Shown here in pieces: positions 1,270 through 12,843 of a DNA stretch of 50,709 nucleotides (within the stretch, counting starts at the first letter, position 1; every line of letters starts with the position of its first letter). The notes below the pieces were generated by a model that saw nothing but the letters and a program-made list of their open reading frames with translations, was not told the DNA's origin and searched no databases. The translations under genes were made by a program, and so were the position numbers. The stretch is taken from IMG/VR virus record IMGVR_UViG_3300034100_000034, positions 1-50,709 of that record. One strand, given 5' to 3'. The DNA comes from a virus. Taxonomy: Duplodnaviria > Caudoviricetes.

Positions 1270-2409
1270 TCAACCCAGCAGGACGGCCGAGTGCTCAGGC
1301 TTCATGTTGGCCACGCCCCAAGCGAGACCGATGAAGTACCCGCCCATGCGGAAACCAGGGTAGTACGCCAGCTCAAAGCTGAGACCCGACCGGGGATCGG
1401 TCAGCACGGTGCGGTCGCTCGCCAGGTCACCATCTTTCGGCAGCGCAGGCAGCCGAGTGGCCAGCGCCATCGAGTTGCGCGAGAACGCCATGCTGCGGAC
1501 GGAGGTGCCGCCGACGGTCATCGCGACGGCAGAGGCGGGGATTGCCTGGCGCAGACCGGGCGCAGCAATCACGATGGTGCCCGGAGCAGCGACGCCGGTG
1601 ACGACCATGTACTTGTTGGTGTCGCCGGCAAACGTCACAAAATCCCCGGCCAGCACCGTGCCCGAGCCCGTGATGATGGCGATTGACGTTGCGCCGACCG
1701 CGAAGCCTGCGGTCGAGGTGGTGTAGGCGGCGCCGGTGCCCTTGGTGAAGCTCGCGACCTGTGCAGACTCACGGATACCGAAGTTGTGAATGTCCAGCAG
1801 CAAGCCCTGGCGCAACATGGTGGTGTCGGCGGCTTCGTTCGCTTTGGTCAGCTGAGTCAGCGCGCGCATACGGGCGCCGGCCGTGGTGTCGATGACCACT
1901 TGCCGGTCAGAAGGCGGAGCGCCGTTGTCGTCCAGAATCTTGCGCAGCTGGGCGATGTCGGACAGGTCCGAGGCGAAAGGCGCAGTGCCGGCGGTGCCGT
2001 AGGCGCGCGAAGCGTAGATGTGCAGCGCGGCGGCATCTGCTTCGACCTCGTTCACGAGCACGCGAATGGCCTGCGCAATCTGGTCCTGCTGCACGGAGAG
2101 ATAACCCGGACCGGTGTCGGCGGACTTCTGGTCCTCGCCGGACCACTCGAATGCGGCGAACTTCGACTTGGTGATCGACAGCGTGCGATTGCCGATGGTC
2201 TGTGCGGCGGGCGTGGGCACTGTCATCGCGGGCGTGATGCTCGCCGTGGTGTTTGCGGGGGCGACAAACGAGCGAATCGTCTGGTTCAACGCGGCTCGGT
2301 CTGCGGTCATGTCGCGCTGCATTGCCGGGATGAACCCGACCAACTCGCGGGAAACAACGTCCAGCGCAGCATAGGCGTCAGGCAGGAGGGAGGTGAGGGT
2401 GGTAGCCAT
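1270..2409 (-). CDS. Major capsid protein (P22 coat-like family)
   Basis: 379 aa, ALDVVSRELVGFIP start and WGVANMKPEHSAVLLG end; follows scaffold. Confidence 0.9.
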   Translation of the reverse strand: MATTLTSLLPDAYAALDVVSRELVGFIPAMQRDMTADRAALNQTIRSFVAPANTTASITPAMTVPTPAAQTIGNRTLSITKSKFAAFEWSGEDQKSADTGPGYLSVQQDQIAQAIRVLVNEVEADAAALHIYASRAYGTAGTAPFASDLSDIAQLRKILDDNGAPPSDRQVVIDTTAGARMRALTQLTKANEAADTTMLRQGLLLDIHNFGIRESAQVASFTKGTGAAYTTSTAGFAVGATSIAIITGSGTVLAGDFVTFAGDTNKYMVVTGVAAPGTIVIAAPGLRQAIPASAVAMTVGGTSVRSMAFSRNSMALATRLPALPKDGDLASDRTVLTDPRSGLSFELAYYPGFRMGGYFIGLAWGVANMKPEHSAVLLG

Positions 2410-2526
2410 GATGCAATGTCCTTGCGAAAAAGATGGTCAAACGATTGTTTAGTCCATCCCGGACATTGCTGTTGGGCACCCGGCCCAGTTGAACCCGACC
2501 AGCATCACGCCGGTCGGGTTTCCGCC

Positions 2527-2555
2527 ATTATGACGCCATTCTGTGTGCGAAGCAA
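2527..2555 (-). promoter_or_regulatory. Sigma70-like promoter for capsid gene
   Basis: TTGCTT-N17-CATAAT on minus strand. Confidence 0.6.
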
Positions 2556-2574
2556 ATTTATTTTGTCCGCGCGC

Positions 2575-3360
2575 TCAGTCCACGATGTTGTGGGACTTGG
2601 CGACCGAAGCCTTCTCCCGCGCCGGCAACGCCTCGAACGCCGCGCGGGTGATGGTCTTGCCGCCCGCGCCCGCGCCGCCAGACCCGCCCGCGCCGCCGCC
2701 GGAAGCGCCAGCCGGGAACCAATGCGGCGCCGCCTCCTTCATCGTCTCCAGCCATTCGGCCGGGGTGAAGGGCGTCTTGCCGTCCTTGCCCAGCACCGCG
2801 TGGCCGTCGGCGCCCAACTGCACGGCGTCGCCCTTGGAGTCCAGGGAGAACAGCGCACGGGCGCGCAGCAGCGCATCGTCCACGGCGAACGCATGGATGC
2901 CTGCTTTTGCGGCTGCGGCGCGGATGTGGTTGTCGAGAACGCGTCCTTTGAAGGTGTTGGCCACCTCAGTAGCTTCTTTTTCGCGCGCGACCGCTGCGTC
3001 AATGAGCTTTTGCTGGGCGGCGTCGCGCTTTGACATGCGTTTCGAGATCACTTCGTCAACTTTGCCCGCCGCGATCAGCGCGGCCTCTTCCTCGTTGTCG
3101 AACTTGCTGAGCAACGCACGGGTCTTTGCCGGGTCGATGCCCTCGAAATCCTTCAGCGCATCGGCCACAGCCTGCGCACTGGCGGCCTTGGCGGCCTTGA
3201 CGGCGTCGCGCTCTTTGCTGAGGGCGGTCTTGAGGCCGGAAACGTCTTCGATCTCGACTTTGCTTGGGTCGAGCTTAAATTTTGTTCCGTCCTGCACATA
3301 CCAGGCGCGCTGCGCTTCGGGGATGGTGTCGAGGGTGTCTGCTGCTAGGGCGATTGCCAT
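2575..3360 (-). CDS. Capsid scaffolding protein
   Basis: DVSGLKTALSKER coiled coil, APHWFP plus Gly-rich tail; AAGGA RBS before ATG 3360. Confidence 0.8.
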   Translation of the reverse strand: MAIALAADTLDTIPEAQRAWYVQDGTKFKLDPSKVEIEDVSGLKTALSKERDAVKAAKAASAQAVADALKDFEGIDPAKTRALLSKFDNEEEAALIAAGKVDEVISKRMSKRDAAQQKLIDAAVAREKEATEVANTFKGRVLDNHIRAAAAKAGIHAFAVDDALLRARALFSLDSKGDAVQLGADGHAVLGKDGKTPFTPAEWLETMKEAAPHWFPAGASGGGAGGSGGAGAGGKTITRAAFEALPAREKASVAKSHNIVD

Positions 3361-9027: not shown

Positions 9028-10524
9028 TCAGAATTGATTTTTGACGACTTTGAGATGGCTGGGGACGGCCGCAGCTTTATTTTCGGCGATCTTTTTTCCC
9101 CGTTCGCCCAAAAATAAATTCGTTTCCGCGCGGTTTGACCCAAAATCCGCCTTGGCAAACGCCAGCCTCGACCGGAAAACCACCCCGCTCGCCGAGAATT
9201 GCCAGCGGTCAGCCCCACCCGGCGGCTTCACAGCCAGGTAGCCCTCCTGCTGCATGCGGTGCGACAAGCGGCGCGGAGACTTGATCAGCGCGGCGATCTC
9301 GTCCTTGGCGTCAAAGGTGTCCGCCAGCAGCTCTGTGGCGAAGAAGGCGCGGGGCTTCTCCAGCCGCTCCAGCGCCGCCGTGACCGCATCGTCGGGGGTG
9401 TCCCAGCTGTTGGTCACCGCCTCCCACCCCTGGGTCTTGGCCACCTGCGCCTTGGGGTTGAACGCGCTCAGGTCCCGCGCCCGCAACCACGCCCCCACCG
9501 CCGCCGCCCCGCCCGCCTCCATCCACCCGAACAGTCGCAGGAAGTACTCCGGGTCCCCGGCCGTCTCGTGCCACTTTTGGGGCAACGTCGAGTGCATCAC
9601 AAACATCCGCCGGTCCTCGGGCGGTATGTACATTGCCATCCAGTCATTGGTCGTCACAAACACCCGCATGACGTTGACCACGTAGCGCAGCTTCTCAAAC
9701 TTCTGATTCAGCGGCAGCACATCCGGCGGCGCCACAATCATCGGCTTCAGCACGTTGTACATCGACGACGCGTGAAACTCGTCCTTGGTGGGGCGCACCT
9801 CATCCACCACCAACATCAACGTCTGCACCCATGGCTTGTAGTCGCTGAACAGCTGGTCCGGGTCAATGCCCTTGCAATTCCACGTGCCCACGGCGGCGCG
9901 CACCGGCCAAAGGGCGGCGTCCTTGCCGATGCCCTGGGTGCCGGAGAGGACGATGGCGGCGTTGCATTTTTCGCCGGGCCGCTGCACCATGTGCGCGCAG
10001 TAGTCGAAGAAAAAGTTGTGCTCCGCCGGGTCCGGCCACAGCTTCTGCACGTGCGCGGTCCACACCTCCGCGCTACCTGCCGGCGCGGCCGAGACGGGCG
10101 GGGGGACGTATTGGTTGTACGACCGCCGGCCCGGCGCGGGGTAGAAGCCCTCGCCGTTGATGAAGTAGTCGTGAATGATTTGGGGTCGGCCGGGCCACCA
10201 CGTGCTCCCCTCCACAAATGCGTCATTTTCCACGCGCATGATGTCCTGCGACGGACGGACCAACCGCTCCTTGCGGCCCTTGGGCCGGCCCTTGGCGCCC
10301 GGCAGGGGCTCGGGGGCTTCCTCGATTTCCACGCGCCAGAGCTCCTTGGGGATGCTGGCGTCGACGGACTTCTCGGTGTGCAGGGTGCCGTCGCACAGGT
10401 CCCAAAACGCCTCTTGCGCCTTGTCATACACGTAGTCCTCGGGACGCGCCAGCCGGCGCTGGCCGGCGAGTTGCGCGCGCAGGGCGGCTTCGCGCTCGGC
10501 GGCGCGTTGTTCTGGGGTGGTCAT
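9028..10524 (-). CDS. SF3-like replicative helicase (DUF5906 / NrS-1-type)
   Basis: Walker A GTQGIGKD, Walker B LVVDE, FVTTN, DRRMFV. Confidence 0.88.
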   Translation of the reverse strand: MTTPEQRAAEREAALRAQLAGQRRLARPEDYVYDKAQEAFWDLCDGTLHTEKSVDASIPKELWRVEIEEAPEPLPGAKGRPKGRKERLVRPSQDIMRVENDAFVEGSTWWPGRPQIIHDYFINGEGFYPAPGRRSYNQYVPPPVSAAPAGSAEVWTAHVQKLWPDPAEHNFFFDYCAHMVQRPGEKCNAAIVLSGTQGIGKDAALWPVRAAVGTWNCKGIDPDQLFSDYKPWVQTLMLVVDEVRPTKDEFHASSMYNVLKPMIVAPPDVLPLNQKFEKLRYVVNVMRVFVTTNDWMAMYIPPEDRRMFVMHSTLPQKWHETAGDPEYFLRLFGWMEAGGAAAVGAWLRARDLSAFNPKAQVAKTQGWEAVTNSWDTPDDAVTAALERLEKPRAFFATELLADTFDAKDEIAALIKSPRRLSHRMQQEGYLAVKPPGGADRWQFSASGVVFRSRLAFAKADFGSNRAETNLFLGERGKKIAENKAAAVPSHLKVVKNQF

Positions 10525-11621
10525 GGTTTTGTTGCCTCTATGAAGATTTGTGCTGCTTGCGCGTTGATCGCGTTTCCGTAGGCGCGCAAGCGTCCCACTC
10601 GGGCGGGAGCCCCATGAGCCAGCGGGAGTGTGCCGGGTTCAACTGGCCGCCACTTTCCATCCCGGCACAAGAGCCAGTCAGCATCTCGCCAGTGGCCGTT
10701 AGTCGGGCCGGTTGATCGTGAGGCTTGCAGGGTTCCATCGCTTTGCGCCACTGTCCGCTGATCTGGTTGTGCGCTGCAGGATTCACGCTGCCCACCATCG
10801 GTGTCGGCCATCCCGCTAGCGCTGTCACATCCTTCAACGTAACCTGCACCTTTCGCCCATCCAGCGTGCGACCTGTTGCCGTCGTGCCCTCTGGCGGCAC
10901 TTGTCCACCCGAGGGAAGCGTCGGTGTCGGCCATCCCGCTAAAGTTGCGTCCTTCGGAAGATCCTTGCCCTGGCAGTTCTCCGTATATGTCCCGCCGCAC
11001 TTCGGGTCTGTCGCACGCGGAGATGCCCACCCCGCCAGGTGCACCGCGTGCGCAAGTTTGTCCGTCCTGCCGCTGCTCACGACCGATGGCGCAGCTCCGT
11101 CCTTGTGGTCGCGCTGATTTGGCGTTGCCAACCCAATACAATCGGTCCCTGATGTGCGGCGCACCGACGCCCGCAGACGGAAACGGGATCGCCCCAAAGG
11201 CGTAACCCAAGGCTTCCATGTCAGTTTGTACAAGGTCGATCCAAGCAGTTGCGTCGCTGCTCGCAACCTGCTCTCCATAGACGACTGGAGGGTTGCACTG
11301 GCCGATAAGATGGAACCATGCGGGCCATAGATGCCGCTCGTCAGCAAACCCATCGCCTTTGCCTGCCGCGCTGAAAGGTTGGCAGGGGCAAGAGCCTGTC
11401 CAAACTCTTTGATCGTCTCGCCATCCGGCCCGCCGCAAAGCAAGCGACCAGACCCCGACCCCGGCGAAGAAGTGACATTGTGTGAATCCGGCAAGGTCGC
11501 CAGGGGTGATGTCTTCGATTGATCGTTCATCAACAATTCCGGGCGCAACGTGGCCCGCCTCGATTAAGTTTCTGAGCCACTGCGCGGCGTGCTTGTCGTG
11601 CTCGTTGTAGTAAGCGGTCAT
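10521..11621 (-). CDS. DNA cytosine-5 methyltransferase, catalytic (alpha-like) polypeptide
   Basis: FFAGVG, catalytic [21 protein letters not shown]-terminal YGNAI; ATG 11621 overlaps upstream stop. Confidence 0.9.
10538..11548 (-). CDS. Overlapping alternative-frame MTase beta-like polypeptide (motif IX plus repeated WPTP modules); start uncertain
   Basis: 336-codon open frame within the MTase; [17 protein letters not shown] resembles motif IX, which the main frame lacks. Confidence 0.7.
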
Positions 11622-11914
11622 TTCTTCACCTGACACAACACGACCCGCGGTGTGTTTTTGTACTGATCAAAATTGACGCACGGAACCACCTTGAACAGCG
11701 GCAACGCGCAGTAGGCTTCTTTTCCTTGCCACGTCACCGCGTAGTGATCGCACGCGCGGCAGTCGCGCCCTGGGCCTCTCACGTCTTTGCAGATCGCGCT
11801 GGCCGTGGCCATGGTGACGTTGAGTTCGTAGGCAATCTCTTTCAGCCGCCGCGTTGGGCGTGACGCGCGCGCCCATGCGATTTCGCTCGGCGTCAGTTGG
11901 GATGGCGTTTTCAC
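11618..11914 (-). CDS. HTH / Cys-rich hypothetical protein
   Basis: GTGA overlap with primase stop; RLKEIAYELNVTMATASAIC HTH-like; CxxC. Confidence 0.6.
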   Translation of the reverse strand: MKTPSQLTPSEIAWARASRPTRRLKEIAYELNVTMATASAICKDVRGPGRDCRACDHYAVTWQGKEAYCALPLFKVVPCVNFDQYKNTPRVVLCQVKK

Positions 11915-12843
11915 GCAGCGGCCCGGTTGATGGCGTCCAGCTCGTCGCTGCTCTGCTCGGCGATCCACTCCGTCAACTCCCGCCAGCCCTTGCCCGCGCA
12001 GTGGCCGTGGTGACACCGGAAGGCGCCGTAAAAATCGTTCTCGTCGCTGGGCTCGCGGATGGCGGCGCCGTTGTCGGCGCGGGCGGTGTGGTCGTCGCGG
12101 AACGGACACTCAATCTCCGTCCACCCGCTCAGGTCCGGCTCCCCGCGCTTCAGCATCCCCCGCTGCTCCATCCACCCGTACACCGTCAGGAAGGCCCGGT
12201 TCCGCTCAATGGCCACCTCGCTGCGCAGCTTGGCGCGGGGGGCGCGCCGGCCGTTGATTTCCAGCCCGAACCCCGCCAACAGCTCCTCGACCGTGAAGCG
12301 CCGCGCATTCAGCTCCTGCAACTCCACGCGGAAGCGCCCGCCGTAGGCTGCTTTGCCGTTGATGAATCCGGGGATGCGGCCCACGCGCGAGATGCCCGCC
12401 ATGCCCGGGTCCGCGCCCAGGAGGCGCCCGCTGATGAATGCGCGGATCACCCCGTCGAACCTCGCCGCGTCCCGCTCGGGAGGCCCCAGGAAGTACCACC
12501 ACTGCTCGTTGCCCGGCGACGTCAGCACTCGGGCGCTGGGCCGCATGGCGCTCACGGCGGCAGGGTCCACCTTGGTGCCCACATCGTCCACCATCAACGC
12601 CCGTCCCGCAGCAAAGGTTTCCGCCCGCCGCCGGAAGGACCCGTCCGCCGCGCGCCCGAAGGACCCCACCGTCACGTAAGCGTTAGCCCCCGGCCCCAAC
12701 CCCACCTTCATCCCCGGGCGCCACGGCCGGGGGCGCCACGCGTCGGGCGCCGCCGCGTTAGGGTCCCCGGCGAATCCACAAACGATCAGCCTTTCCTCCT
12801 CGGGCATGTCCGCGCCTAGGGCACACAAGAATTCGTCCGTCAT
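11911..12843 (-). CDS. RepB-like (AEP) DNA primase with C-terminal Zn finger
   Basis: MVDDVGTK, TSPGNEQWWY, GRIPGFINGK, CPFRDDH...CHHGHC. Confidence 0.85.
   Translation of the reverse strand: MTDEFLCALGADMPEEERLIVCGFAGDPNAAAPDAWRPRPWRPGMKVGLGPGANAYVTVGSFGRAADGSFRRRAETFAAGRALMVDDVGTKVDPAAVSAMRPSARVLTSPGNEQWWYFLGPPERDAARFDGVIRAFISGRLLGADPGMAGISRVGRIPGFINGKAAYGGRFRVELQELNARRFTVEELLAGFGLEINGRRAPRAKLRSEVAIERNRAFLTVYGWMEQRGMLKRGEPDLSGWTEIECPFRDDHTARADNGAAIREPSDENDFYGAFRCHHGHCAGKGWRELTEWIAEQSSDELDAINRAAA

Follow-up and report, generated by a model that had tools for sequence, protein, structure and literature searches.

A putative two-subunit phage DNA cytosine-5 methyltransferase encoded in two overlapping reading frames

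We analysed a 50,709-nucleotide stretch of DNA from a virus of the Caudoviricetes (IMG/VR record IMGVR_UViG_3300034100_000034; hereafter the window), and identified on its minus strand a locus at which two genes are written over one another in different reading frames (Table 1). The longer gene, alpha (frame A), encodes a protein with the catalytic motifs of DNA cytosine-5 (C5) methyltransferases. The shorter gene, beta (frame B), lies entirely within alpha on the same strand, giving an overlap of about 1 kb. From the sequences of relatives and from structural models, we consider it very probable that this single stretch of DNA, read in two frames, specifies a C5 methyltransferase of two subunits. 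An in-frame GTG at 11636 is a possible earlier start for alpha, giving a gene of 371 codons (10521..11636); alpha probably starts instead at the ATG at 11621, whose overlap with the stop codon of an upstream open reading frame of 163 codons has the letters ATGA (11618-11621). The alpha stop in turn shares ATGA (10521-10524) with the ATG of a downstream primase/helicase-like gene, and these two overlaps suggest translational coupling along a replication operon.

The elements recognised in frame A follow one another in the order YYNEHD, FFAGVG, PCQPFS, GEQV and HIRDR. Some 130 residues with a high content of G, S, R, D and A come next, and after them a conserved C-terminal part. Frame B reads as a variable leader, a conserved N-terminal part, four modules and a conserved C-terminal segment that contains motif IX. 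The preliminary description of this DNA, made from its letters, had reported the 336 open codons of the second frame; motifs I, IV, VI, VIII and X in the main frame, with EQV in place of ENV; a motif I that follows a segment resembling motifs II and III; an unstructured middle of the main frame; and, in the second frame, a motif IX-like segment, four modules and a DNA repeat. Every one of these points is present in the sequence.

C5 methyltransferases carry the motifs I (FxGxG), IV (PCQ, with the catalytic cysteine), VI (ENV) and VIII (RxR). In alpha these are represented by FFAGVG, PCQPFS, GEQV (in which Q replaces N) and HIRDR, with YGNAI as motif X, and residues F57, A58, G59, G61, P84, C85, Q86, E122, Q123, V124, R163 and R165 are invariant in 52 aligned sequences. 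A significant match to the Pfam model PF00145 (44 bits against a cut-off of 22), which covers residues 79-176 only, together with the catalytic motifs and the catalytic-domain fold, places alpha in this family, and phrog_363 matches it end to end (E 2.5e-87). AlphaFold2 modelled strands and helices within residues 8-172, with block means of the predicted local distance difference test (pLDDT) mostly of 76-96 and dips to 46-59 at residues 81-100 and to 58 at residues 151-160. For alpha alone, the model is confident over residues 1-178 and 355-371 and falls below a pLDDT of 50 across nearly all of residues 179-354, which corresponds to the middle described as unstructured. The core resembles the methyltransferase M.HhaI by Foldseek (2uz4_A, E 7.8e-08) and by VIA-align (2uyc_A, Z 12.0, root-mean-square deviation 3.3, 157 aligned residues), and hhalign places alpha residues 78-172 on residues 65-158 of gp46, the single-chain methylase of Mycobacterium phage Papez (E 2.5e-16).

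We additionally identified a permuted motif order, II-III-I-IV, at 11400-11621 (alpha residues 6-80). The strand YYNE(H/W)DK, which matches the motif II region of M.HhaI, comes first, followed by the III-like IEDITP, by FFAGVG and then by PCQ. The motif I unit is placed after the II/III-like segment and before motif IV because phmmer aligns alpha residues 46-71, which include FFAGVG, with M.HhaI residues 7-32, VIA-align places alpha residue 6 at M.HhaI residue 34, and hhalign locates the region that follows on Papez gp46 as given above. Alignment of alpha's first 86 residues alone with Papez gp46 by hhalign gave no information on motif order. To our knowledge, the order II-III-I-IV has not been described before.

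The canonical order from motif I to motif X, with IX and X on one chain, is not found at this locus: motif IX lies in frame B, and motif X in frame A. The beta profile aligns by hhalign with residues 204-244 of Papez gp46 (EFYEWLMGLPRGW; E 4e-4, probability 34%), and in that single-chain enzyme EWLMGLPRGW forms motif IX and is followed by GNGVVP as motif X, which places motif IX on beta and motif X on alpha. Beta also matches two phage protein families, phrog_1008 (E 6.9e-32) and phrog_31772 (E 6.5e-37), both labelled DNA methyltransferase. Sequence searches with beta gave no match to Pfam, NCBIfam or the chains of the PDB, and an Atlas search returned unnamed viral clusters only; in a large protein collection, at least 7918 of 8000 scored candidates were relatives of beta. 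Taken alone, beta folds poorly (mean pLDDT 56.5), and its first 50 or so residues are unconstrained.

Two start codons for beta are candidates in the window, the TTG at 11548, with GAGG 9 nucleotides upstream, and an ATG at 11530 that has no clear Shine-Dalgarno sequence. In 41 of 57 relatives an ATG stands 45 codons before LSARQ, preceded in 35 of the 41 by GGAG 8 nucleotides upstream, and in these relatives both the GGAG and the ATG are written within the conserved E-R-S-I-E-D codons of alpha.

Table 1. Features of the overlapping alpha and beta genes, in coordinates of the window.
Feature	Coordinates	Strand	Remarks
Alpha gene (frame A)	10521..11621	minus	starts at ATG 11621; 366 codons and a stop
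Beta gene (frame B, +1 relative to frame A)	10538..11548	minus	336 codons from TTG 11548; stop 10538-10540
Alpha catalytic core (P0001 residues 6-178)	11103..11621	minus	confident fold in AlphaFold2
Beta conserved N-terminal part (P0002 residues 58-134, LSARQAK...)	11147..11377	minus	overprinted on alpha motifs IV-VIII; doubly constrained
Beta module array (P0002 residues 138-280)	10709..11137	minus	IGLATP, LAGWASP, LAGWPTP, LAGWPTP with variable spacers
Segment constrained in both frames	10587..10736	minus	entropy 0.16-0.54 at all three codon positions; both readings in the predicted interface
Motif IX in beta	10595..10642	minus	hhalign to single-chain Papez gp46
Motif X helix of alpha	10524..10586	minus	only frame A constrained; pLDDT 86-92
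21-nucleotide direct repeat, copy 1	10921..10941		encodes LAGWPTP of module 3
21-nucleotide direct repeat, copy 2	10798..10818		encodes LAGWPTP of module 4

We investigated the conservation of the two frames in 80 viral loci that encode alpha relatives of 50-59% identity, using alignments of 52 or 57 sequences. All 80 loci have a +1 frame with 259-576 open codons, and the longest open stretch of the +2 frame runs to 36-157 codons. Thus, interruption of the second frame by stops in homologues, which had been set beforehand as the refuting outcome, was found in none of them. Frame A is open through its middle in 79 of the 80. Strict motif tests were passed by 74 of 81 sequences (the 80 loci and the window); five of the seven failures were misses of the alpha pattern in which the frames are open nonetheless, another, locus L029, has a beta with WLMALP instead of W[LM]xGxP, and the seventh, locus L028, has a single stop in alpha. 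The +1 frame is kept in the enterobacterial phages SW3, epsilon15 and Erwinia 59, at about 50% identity and with a guanine plus cytosine (GC) content of 55-58%, and also in the short single-module forms of K1H, HC6 and NINP13076, in which beta has 219-230 amino acids.

The codon positions that are free to vary in alpha provided a further view of frame B. From the alignment of 57 sequences we took the columns in which 90% or more of them have the same alpha residue and this residue is four-fold degenerate. Third-base entropy in these columns is 1.63 bits over alpha residues 9-84 (18 columns), where beta is unconstrained, 0.70 bits over residues 87-160 (17 columns), opposite the conserved N-terminal part of beta, 0.20 bits over residues 314-348 (12 columns), and 1.35 bits over residues 354-362 (3 columns), and across the motif X region it is back up to 1.27-1.35 bits (Mann-Whitney test on four-fold third-base entropy, p = 2.7e-7). 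The entropy first switches between P84 and P87, at the start of beta's LSARQAK, and switches for the last time between G348 and G354, directly after the EWD of beta. Both frames vary in the module array, with insertions and deletions, and in the majority of sliding windows it is the third position of the beta codons that varies most. We regard the variation by codon position as the decisive result in favour of selection on frame B, and a pattern of entropy that tracks the conserved blocks of beta is, despite the shared ancestry of the loci, hard to explain otherwise. Conservation in both frames across homologues, which the preliminary description had proposed as a check, is accordingly borne out both by openness and by the entropy of four-fold sites.

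When the codons of 59 genes were shuffled synonymously within each gene, the 341-codon open stretch of the +1 frame in the window was reached in 1 of 200 shuffles, and in 23 of the 59 genes the observed open length was never reached. A chance open reading frame in a GC-rich gene was considered and rejected on the openness in 80 of 80 loci together with the entropy, the shuffles alone being only moderately discriminating.

We predicted the structure of the alpha and beta chains together, likewise proposed earlier as a check, with an alignment of 52 sequences for each chain. The pair obtained a complex score of 0.90, and the best of three controls 0.00; in the benchmark, the mark for this score was passed by 58 of 80 solved complexes and by 2 of 110 mismatched pairs, counts that hold only roughly here as the alignments were custom ones. 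Between runs, 63% or more of the contacts agree, and the partner pLDDT is 59 or higher. The predicted interface comprises alpha residues 16-29, 39-46, 60-65, 104-175 and 307-369 and beta residues 49-121, 129-168 and 270-319, and in the model M306-L308 of beta's WLMGLP contact alpha residues 358-359, directly after GNAI. Alpha residues 307-360 are placed with confidence in the complex but not in alpha modelled alone. Two residues read from the same nucleotides would have numbers about 35 apart, and in the best pairs listed the numbers lie 29, 50-69 or far more apart, so that the contacts cannot be put down to the sharing of codons. Structures of single-chain enzymes with this fold have been solved, and the score therefore shows likeness to the fold rather than proof of binding.

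This arrangement can be compared with two-polypeptide enzymes already known. According to the passages on it in PMC2836561 and PMC3404938, M.EcoHK31I of Escherichia coli HK31 (YGGCCR) is the alpha/beta C5 methyltransferase of Lee, Kam and Shaw 1995; its beta chain is encoded inside alpha in another frame, its alpha chain carries motifs I-VIII and X as well as a predicted target-recognition domain (TRD), its beta chain carries motif IX, and both chains are required for activity, some 42 residues at the start of beta being dispensable in vitro. The same passages state that nearly all characterised C5 methylases are monomers. As far as those descriptions go, the phage locus is alike in that a beta reading frame lies inside the alpha gene in another frame, with motifs I-VIII and X on alpha and motif IX on beta, and the dispensable beta residues of M.EcoHK31I parallel the unconstrained leader found here. 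In contrast to M.EcoHK31I, the phage beta comes close to alpha in length (336 and 366 codons, respectively) and contains the recognition-like modules, and the gene is an orphan within a replication module instead of one of a restriction-modification pair. A TRD on alpha, as predicted for M.EcoHK31I in those passages, is likewise not found, as residues 179-354 of the phage alpha are disordered and residues 179-300, approximately, are unconstrained. M.AquI is, according to the passage on it in PMC3404938, a C5 methyltransferase of two polypeptides split in the variable region, with motifs IX and X on the small subunit; the phage enzyme would share its division into two polypeptides, and differs in the overlap of about 1 kb between the genes and in carrying motif X on alpha, overlapping frames not being mentioned in that passage.

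We therefore favour a two-subunit enzyme, which would work as follows. Alpha would provide the core that binds S-adenosylmethionine and performs catalysis, with the II/III-like segment, motif I, motif IV and its catalytic cysteine, motifs VI and VIII, and the motif X helix. Beta, translated separately from its own internal start, would pack through its N-terminal part on the alpha core; its variable W-P-T-P array, of four modules here, probably forms the DNA-recognition domain, and its motif IX would lie beside motif X of alpha and so close the fold. The middle of alpha (residues 179-300 or so) would be a disordered passenger, with a sequence dictated by the modules of beta and kept only free of stops. 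Both chains would be needed for activity, and the enzyme may protect phage DNA from host restriction. Of the heterodimeric, possibly multispecific anti-restriction methyltransferase suggested in the preliminary description, the part that gains support is that of chains from overlapping frames that complement one another as in M.EcoHK31I, through the conservation of both frames, motif IX in beta and a predicted complex that passes its controls. The anti-restriction part is a reasonable proposal, for which the context offers only the position of the gene in a replication module, between primase-like genes and with no restriction enzyme recognised beside it.

An alternative that we judge improbable is that alpha alone is a complete methyltransferase, beta being a real protein with an accessory or separate function, such as a regulator or a modifier of specificity, and not an obligatory subunit. 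A stretch of alpha directly before motif X, conserved among the aligned relatives, could stand in for motif IX, and the predicted TRD of M.EcoHK31I is placed in alpha in the passages of PMC2836561 and PMC3404938. However, the variable region of the phage alpha is disordered and unconstrained, the canonical motif IX lies in beta, and alpha residues 307-360 are confidently placed only when beta is present.

It is more improbable still that the locus yields a single polypeptide by two programmed frameshifts, from frame A to frame B after motif VIII and back between motifs IX and X. Such a protein would restore the canonical order of motifs I-VIII, TRD, IX and X, as in the single chain of Papez gp46. 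However, beta is constrained far upstream of the shift site that this would need, opposite alpha residues 87-160 and within the predicted interface, and frame A is open through its whole middle in 79 of 80 loci, which frameshifting does not require. Just past motif VIII the entropy is about 1.6 bits at all three codon positions, and with nucleotides so unconserved no conserved slippery site is evident, no dedicated search having been run; moreover, most relatives have the GGAG and ATG start of beta. The least probable explanation, close to negligible in our view, is that frame B is untranslated and owes its openness and conservation to constraints on the DNA or RNA or to GC-rich composition: stop codons are by nature scarce in the +1 frame (shuffled genes have about 5 there and about 15 in the +2 frame), but this frame is also open in phages of 55-57% GC, the third codon position of beta is the most variable in the module array, and frame B has a recognisable motif IX and a protein-like fit to alpha.

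Several observations weigh against the two-subunit enzyme. Locus L028 has one in-frame stop in the disordered linker of alpha (at about 2061); its beta is intact and motif X of alpha continues in frame after the stop, which could be a sequencing error or point to decay of the gene or to an enzyme in three pieces. In GC-rich genes the shuffle test has little power: 36 of the 59 genes had one or more shuffles, out of 200, with an open stretch as long as the one observed, and shuffling is a weak control because it retains the set of codons. The loci compared are related by descent and cannot count as independent trials. The window itself lacks the common ATG and GGAG of the beta start, other codons standing there (GAA CGA TCA ... 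GAC ATC). The hhalign match of beta to motif IX reaches a probability of only 34%, a sequence comparison of the beta profile with solved chains gave no match, and alignment of the profile by hhalign to the single-chain methylase of a Bacteroides phage gave nothing. Lastly, the complex prediction may do no more than re-assemble a remembered single-chain fold.

Between 1 and 5 W-x-T/S-P modules were counted per beta in 74 sequences, the window having 4. The DNA of this array reads in frame A as the disordered linker of alpha, with a pLDDT below 50. From 48 of 57 beta sequences we parsed 155 modules, which fall into 20 clusters and 29 singletons, the largest cluster being probably over-merged by single linkage. 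Module types that recur occupy different positions in different loci: the second module parsed in the window, which is the third of the four named in Table 1, as the parsing pattern missed LAGWASP, belongs to a type that occurs at positions 1, 2 and 4 across 5 loci. This distribution fits an exchange of modules between loci, and the earlier suggestion that the modules are exchangeable thus has some support in their varying number and in the recurrence of types at different positions. Neither a sequence search of the PDB nor hhalign to the Bacteroides phage methylase revealed any likeness between the modules and target-recognition domains that are solved or belong to single-chain enzymes.

The DNA repeat noted earlier is a perfect pair of 21 nucleotides and simply encodes the two copies of LAGWPTP. 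All 21 bases are shared between unrelated genes in 9 of 691 anchor pairs, so the repeat is weak evidence of recent duplication. We considered the repeat as a sign of such a duplication and do not claim it, anchors agreeing at 18.67 of 21 positions within genes and at 17.32 of 21 between genes.

The multispecific methyltransferases of the Bacillus phages SPR, phi3T and rho11s are single chains encoded in one frame, in which short recognition modules follow one another in tandem from motif VIII to motif IX. By this description they resemble the present system in having tandem modules and in being phage-borne orphans, and differ from it in that here the array lies in a second frame, on what would be a separate chain. 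A bolder scenario, which we hold doubtful but well short of implausible, is that each W-P-T-P module is an independent, swappable target-recognition unit; phages would shuffle such modules into multispecific methylases, with the array overprinted on a catalytic gene whose own reading is a tolerated disordered linker of arbitrary length, and with the motif I unit naturally swapped behind II-III.

Among relatives of beta we found 27 longer proteins, none of which has PF00145 on record, which is weak evidence against fused single-chain forms; a Pfam scan of seven of the 27 found PF00145 in none of the seven. Two of the proteins, P0123 and P0125, keep the conserved regions of beta and have more modules. 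P0123 (627 amino acids) has the ends of beta and several extra modules, and P0125 extends about 180 residues beyond the motif IX region. At locus L043, frame B (1562-3289) continues for 576 codons into the next gene. Longer relatives with helicase, polymerase or N6/N4-methylase domains may be read-throughs or gene-calling artefacts like that at L043.

In the window, the methylase locus and the upstream 163-codon open reading frame, which has no family matches, lie between two primase-like genes. The protein encoded at 11911-12843 (310 amino acids) matches phrog_4861, 'DNA primase', and that encoded at 9028-10524 (498 amino acids) matches the C-terminal half of phrog_1156, also 'DNA primase'. 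No restriction enzyme was recognised among the neighbouring genes examined, and the gene is therefore an orphan phage methylase.

A tblastn search of the phage collection identified alpha in 417 records (161 at a coverage of at least 80%) and beta in 237 records (166 at a coverage of at least 80%). The beta matches, among the 30 listed, fall mostly under features annotated as a single methyltransferase gene. Phages of Mycobacterium, Paenibacillus and Gordonia match the catalytic core only, and none of them is among the organisms listed for beta. Annotated relatives of the alpha family include gene 58 of N15, the cytosine methylase of epsilon15, gp33 of BcepC6B and ORF28/29 of K1H (open reading frames 28 and 29), and the beta frame is present in every annotated relative examined. 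Public records disagree on the locus. Most annotate frame A only, K1H (L085) and K1ind3 (L086) annotate both overlapping frames, with the label 'Mte8-like protein', and Burkholderia phage phiBtTUL1a (L003) has only frame B annotated, as a 'DNA repair protein', together with an open reading frame on the opposite strand. No publication on a nested frame in phage methylases was found in a literature search that covered sources other than subscription journals and supplements; in the part of PMC5582158 that concerns it, 'Mte8-like' appears merely as a label.

The phage locus is a further member of a widespread and poorly annotated variant of a layout known from one enzyme. With a length of about 1 kb, the overlap of the two genes on one strand, which is conserved in phages of many hosts, ranks among the longest dual-coding regions of DNA viruses. 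Standard annotation enters a single gene for it, or the wrong one. If the two-subunit reading is true, methylome predictions and inventories of anti-restriction functions lack half of the enzyme for phages such as N15 and epsilon15 and for many prophages. This layout also offers a natural system in which to study the co-evolution of two proteins on shared nucleotides, and if the modules set specificity, it would provide a compact scaffold for changing the targets of methylation.

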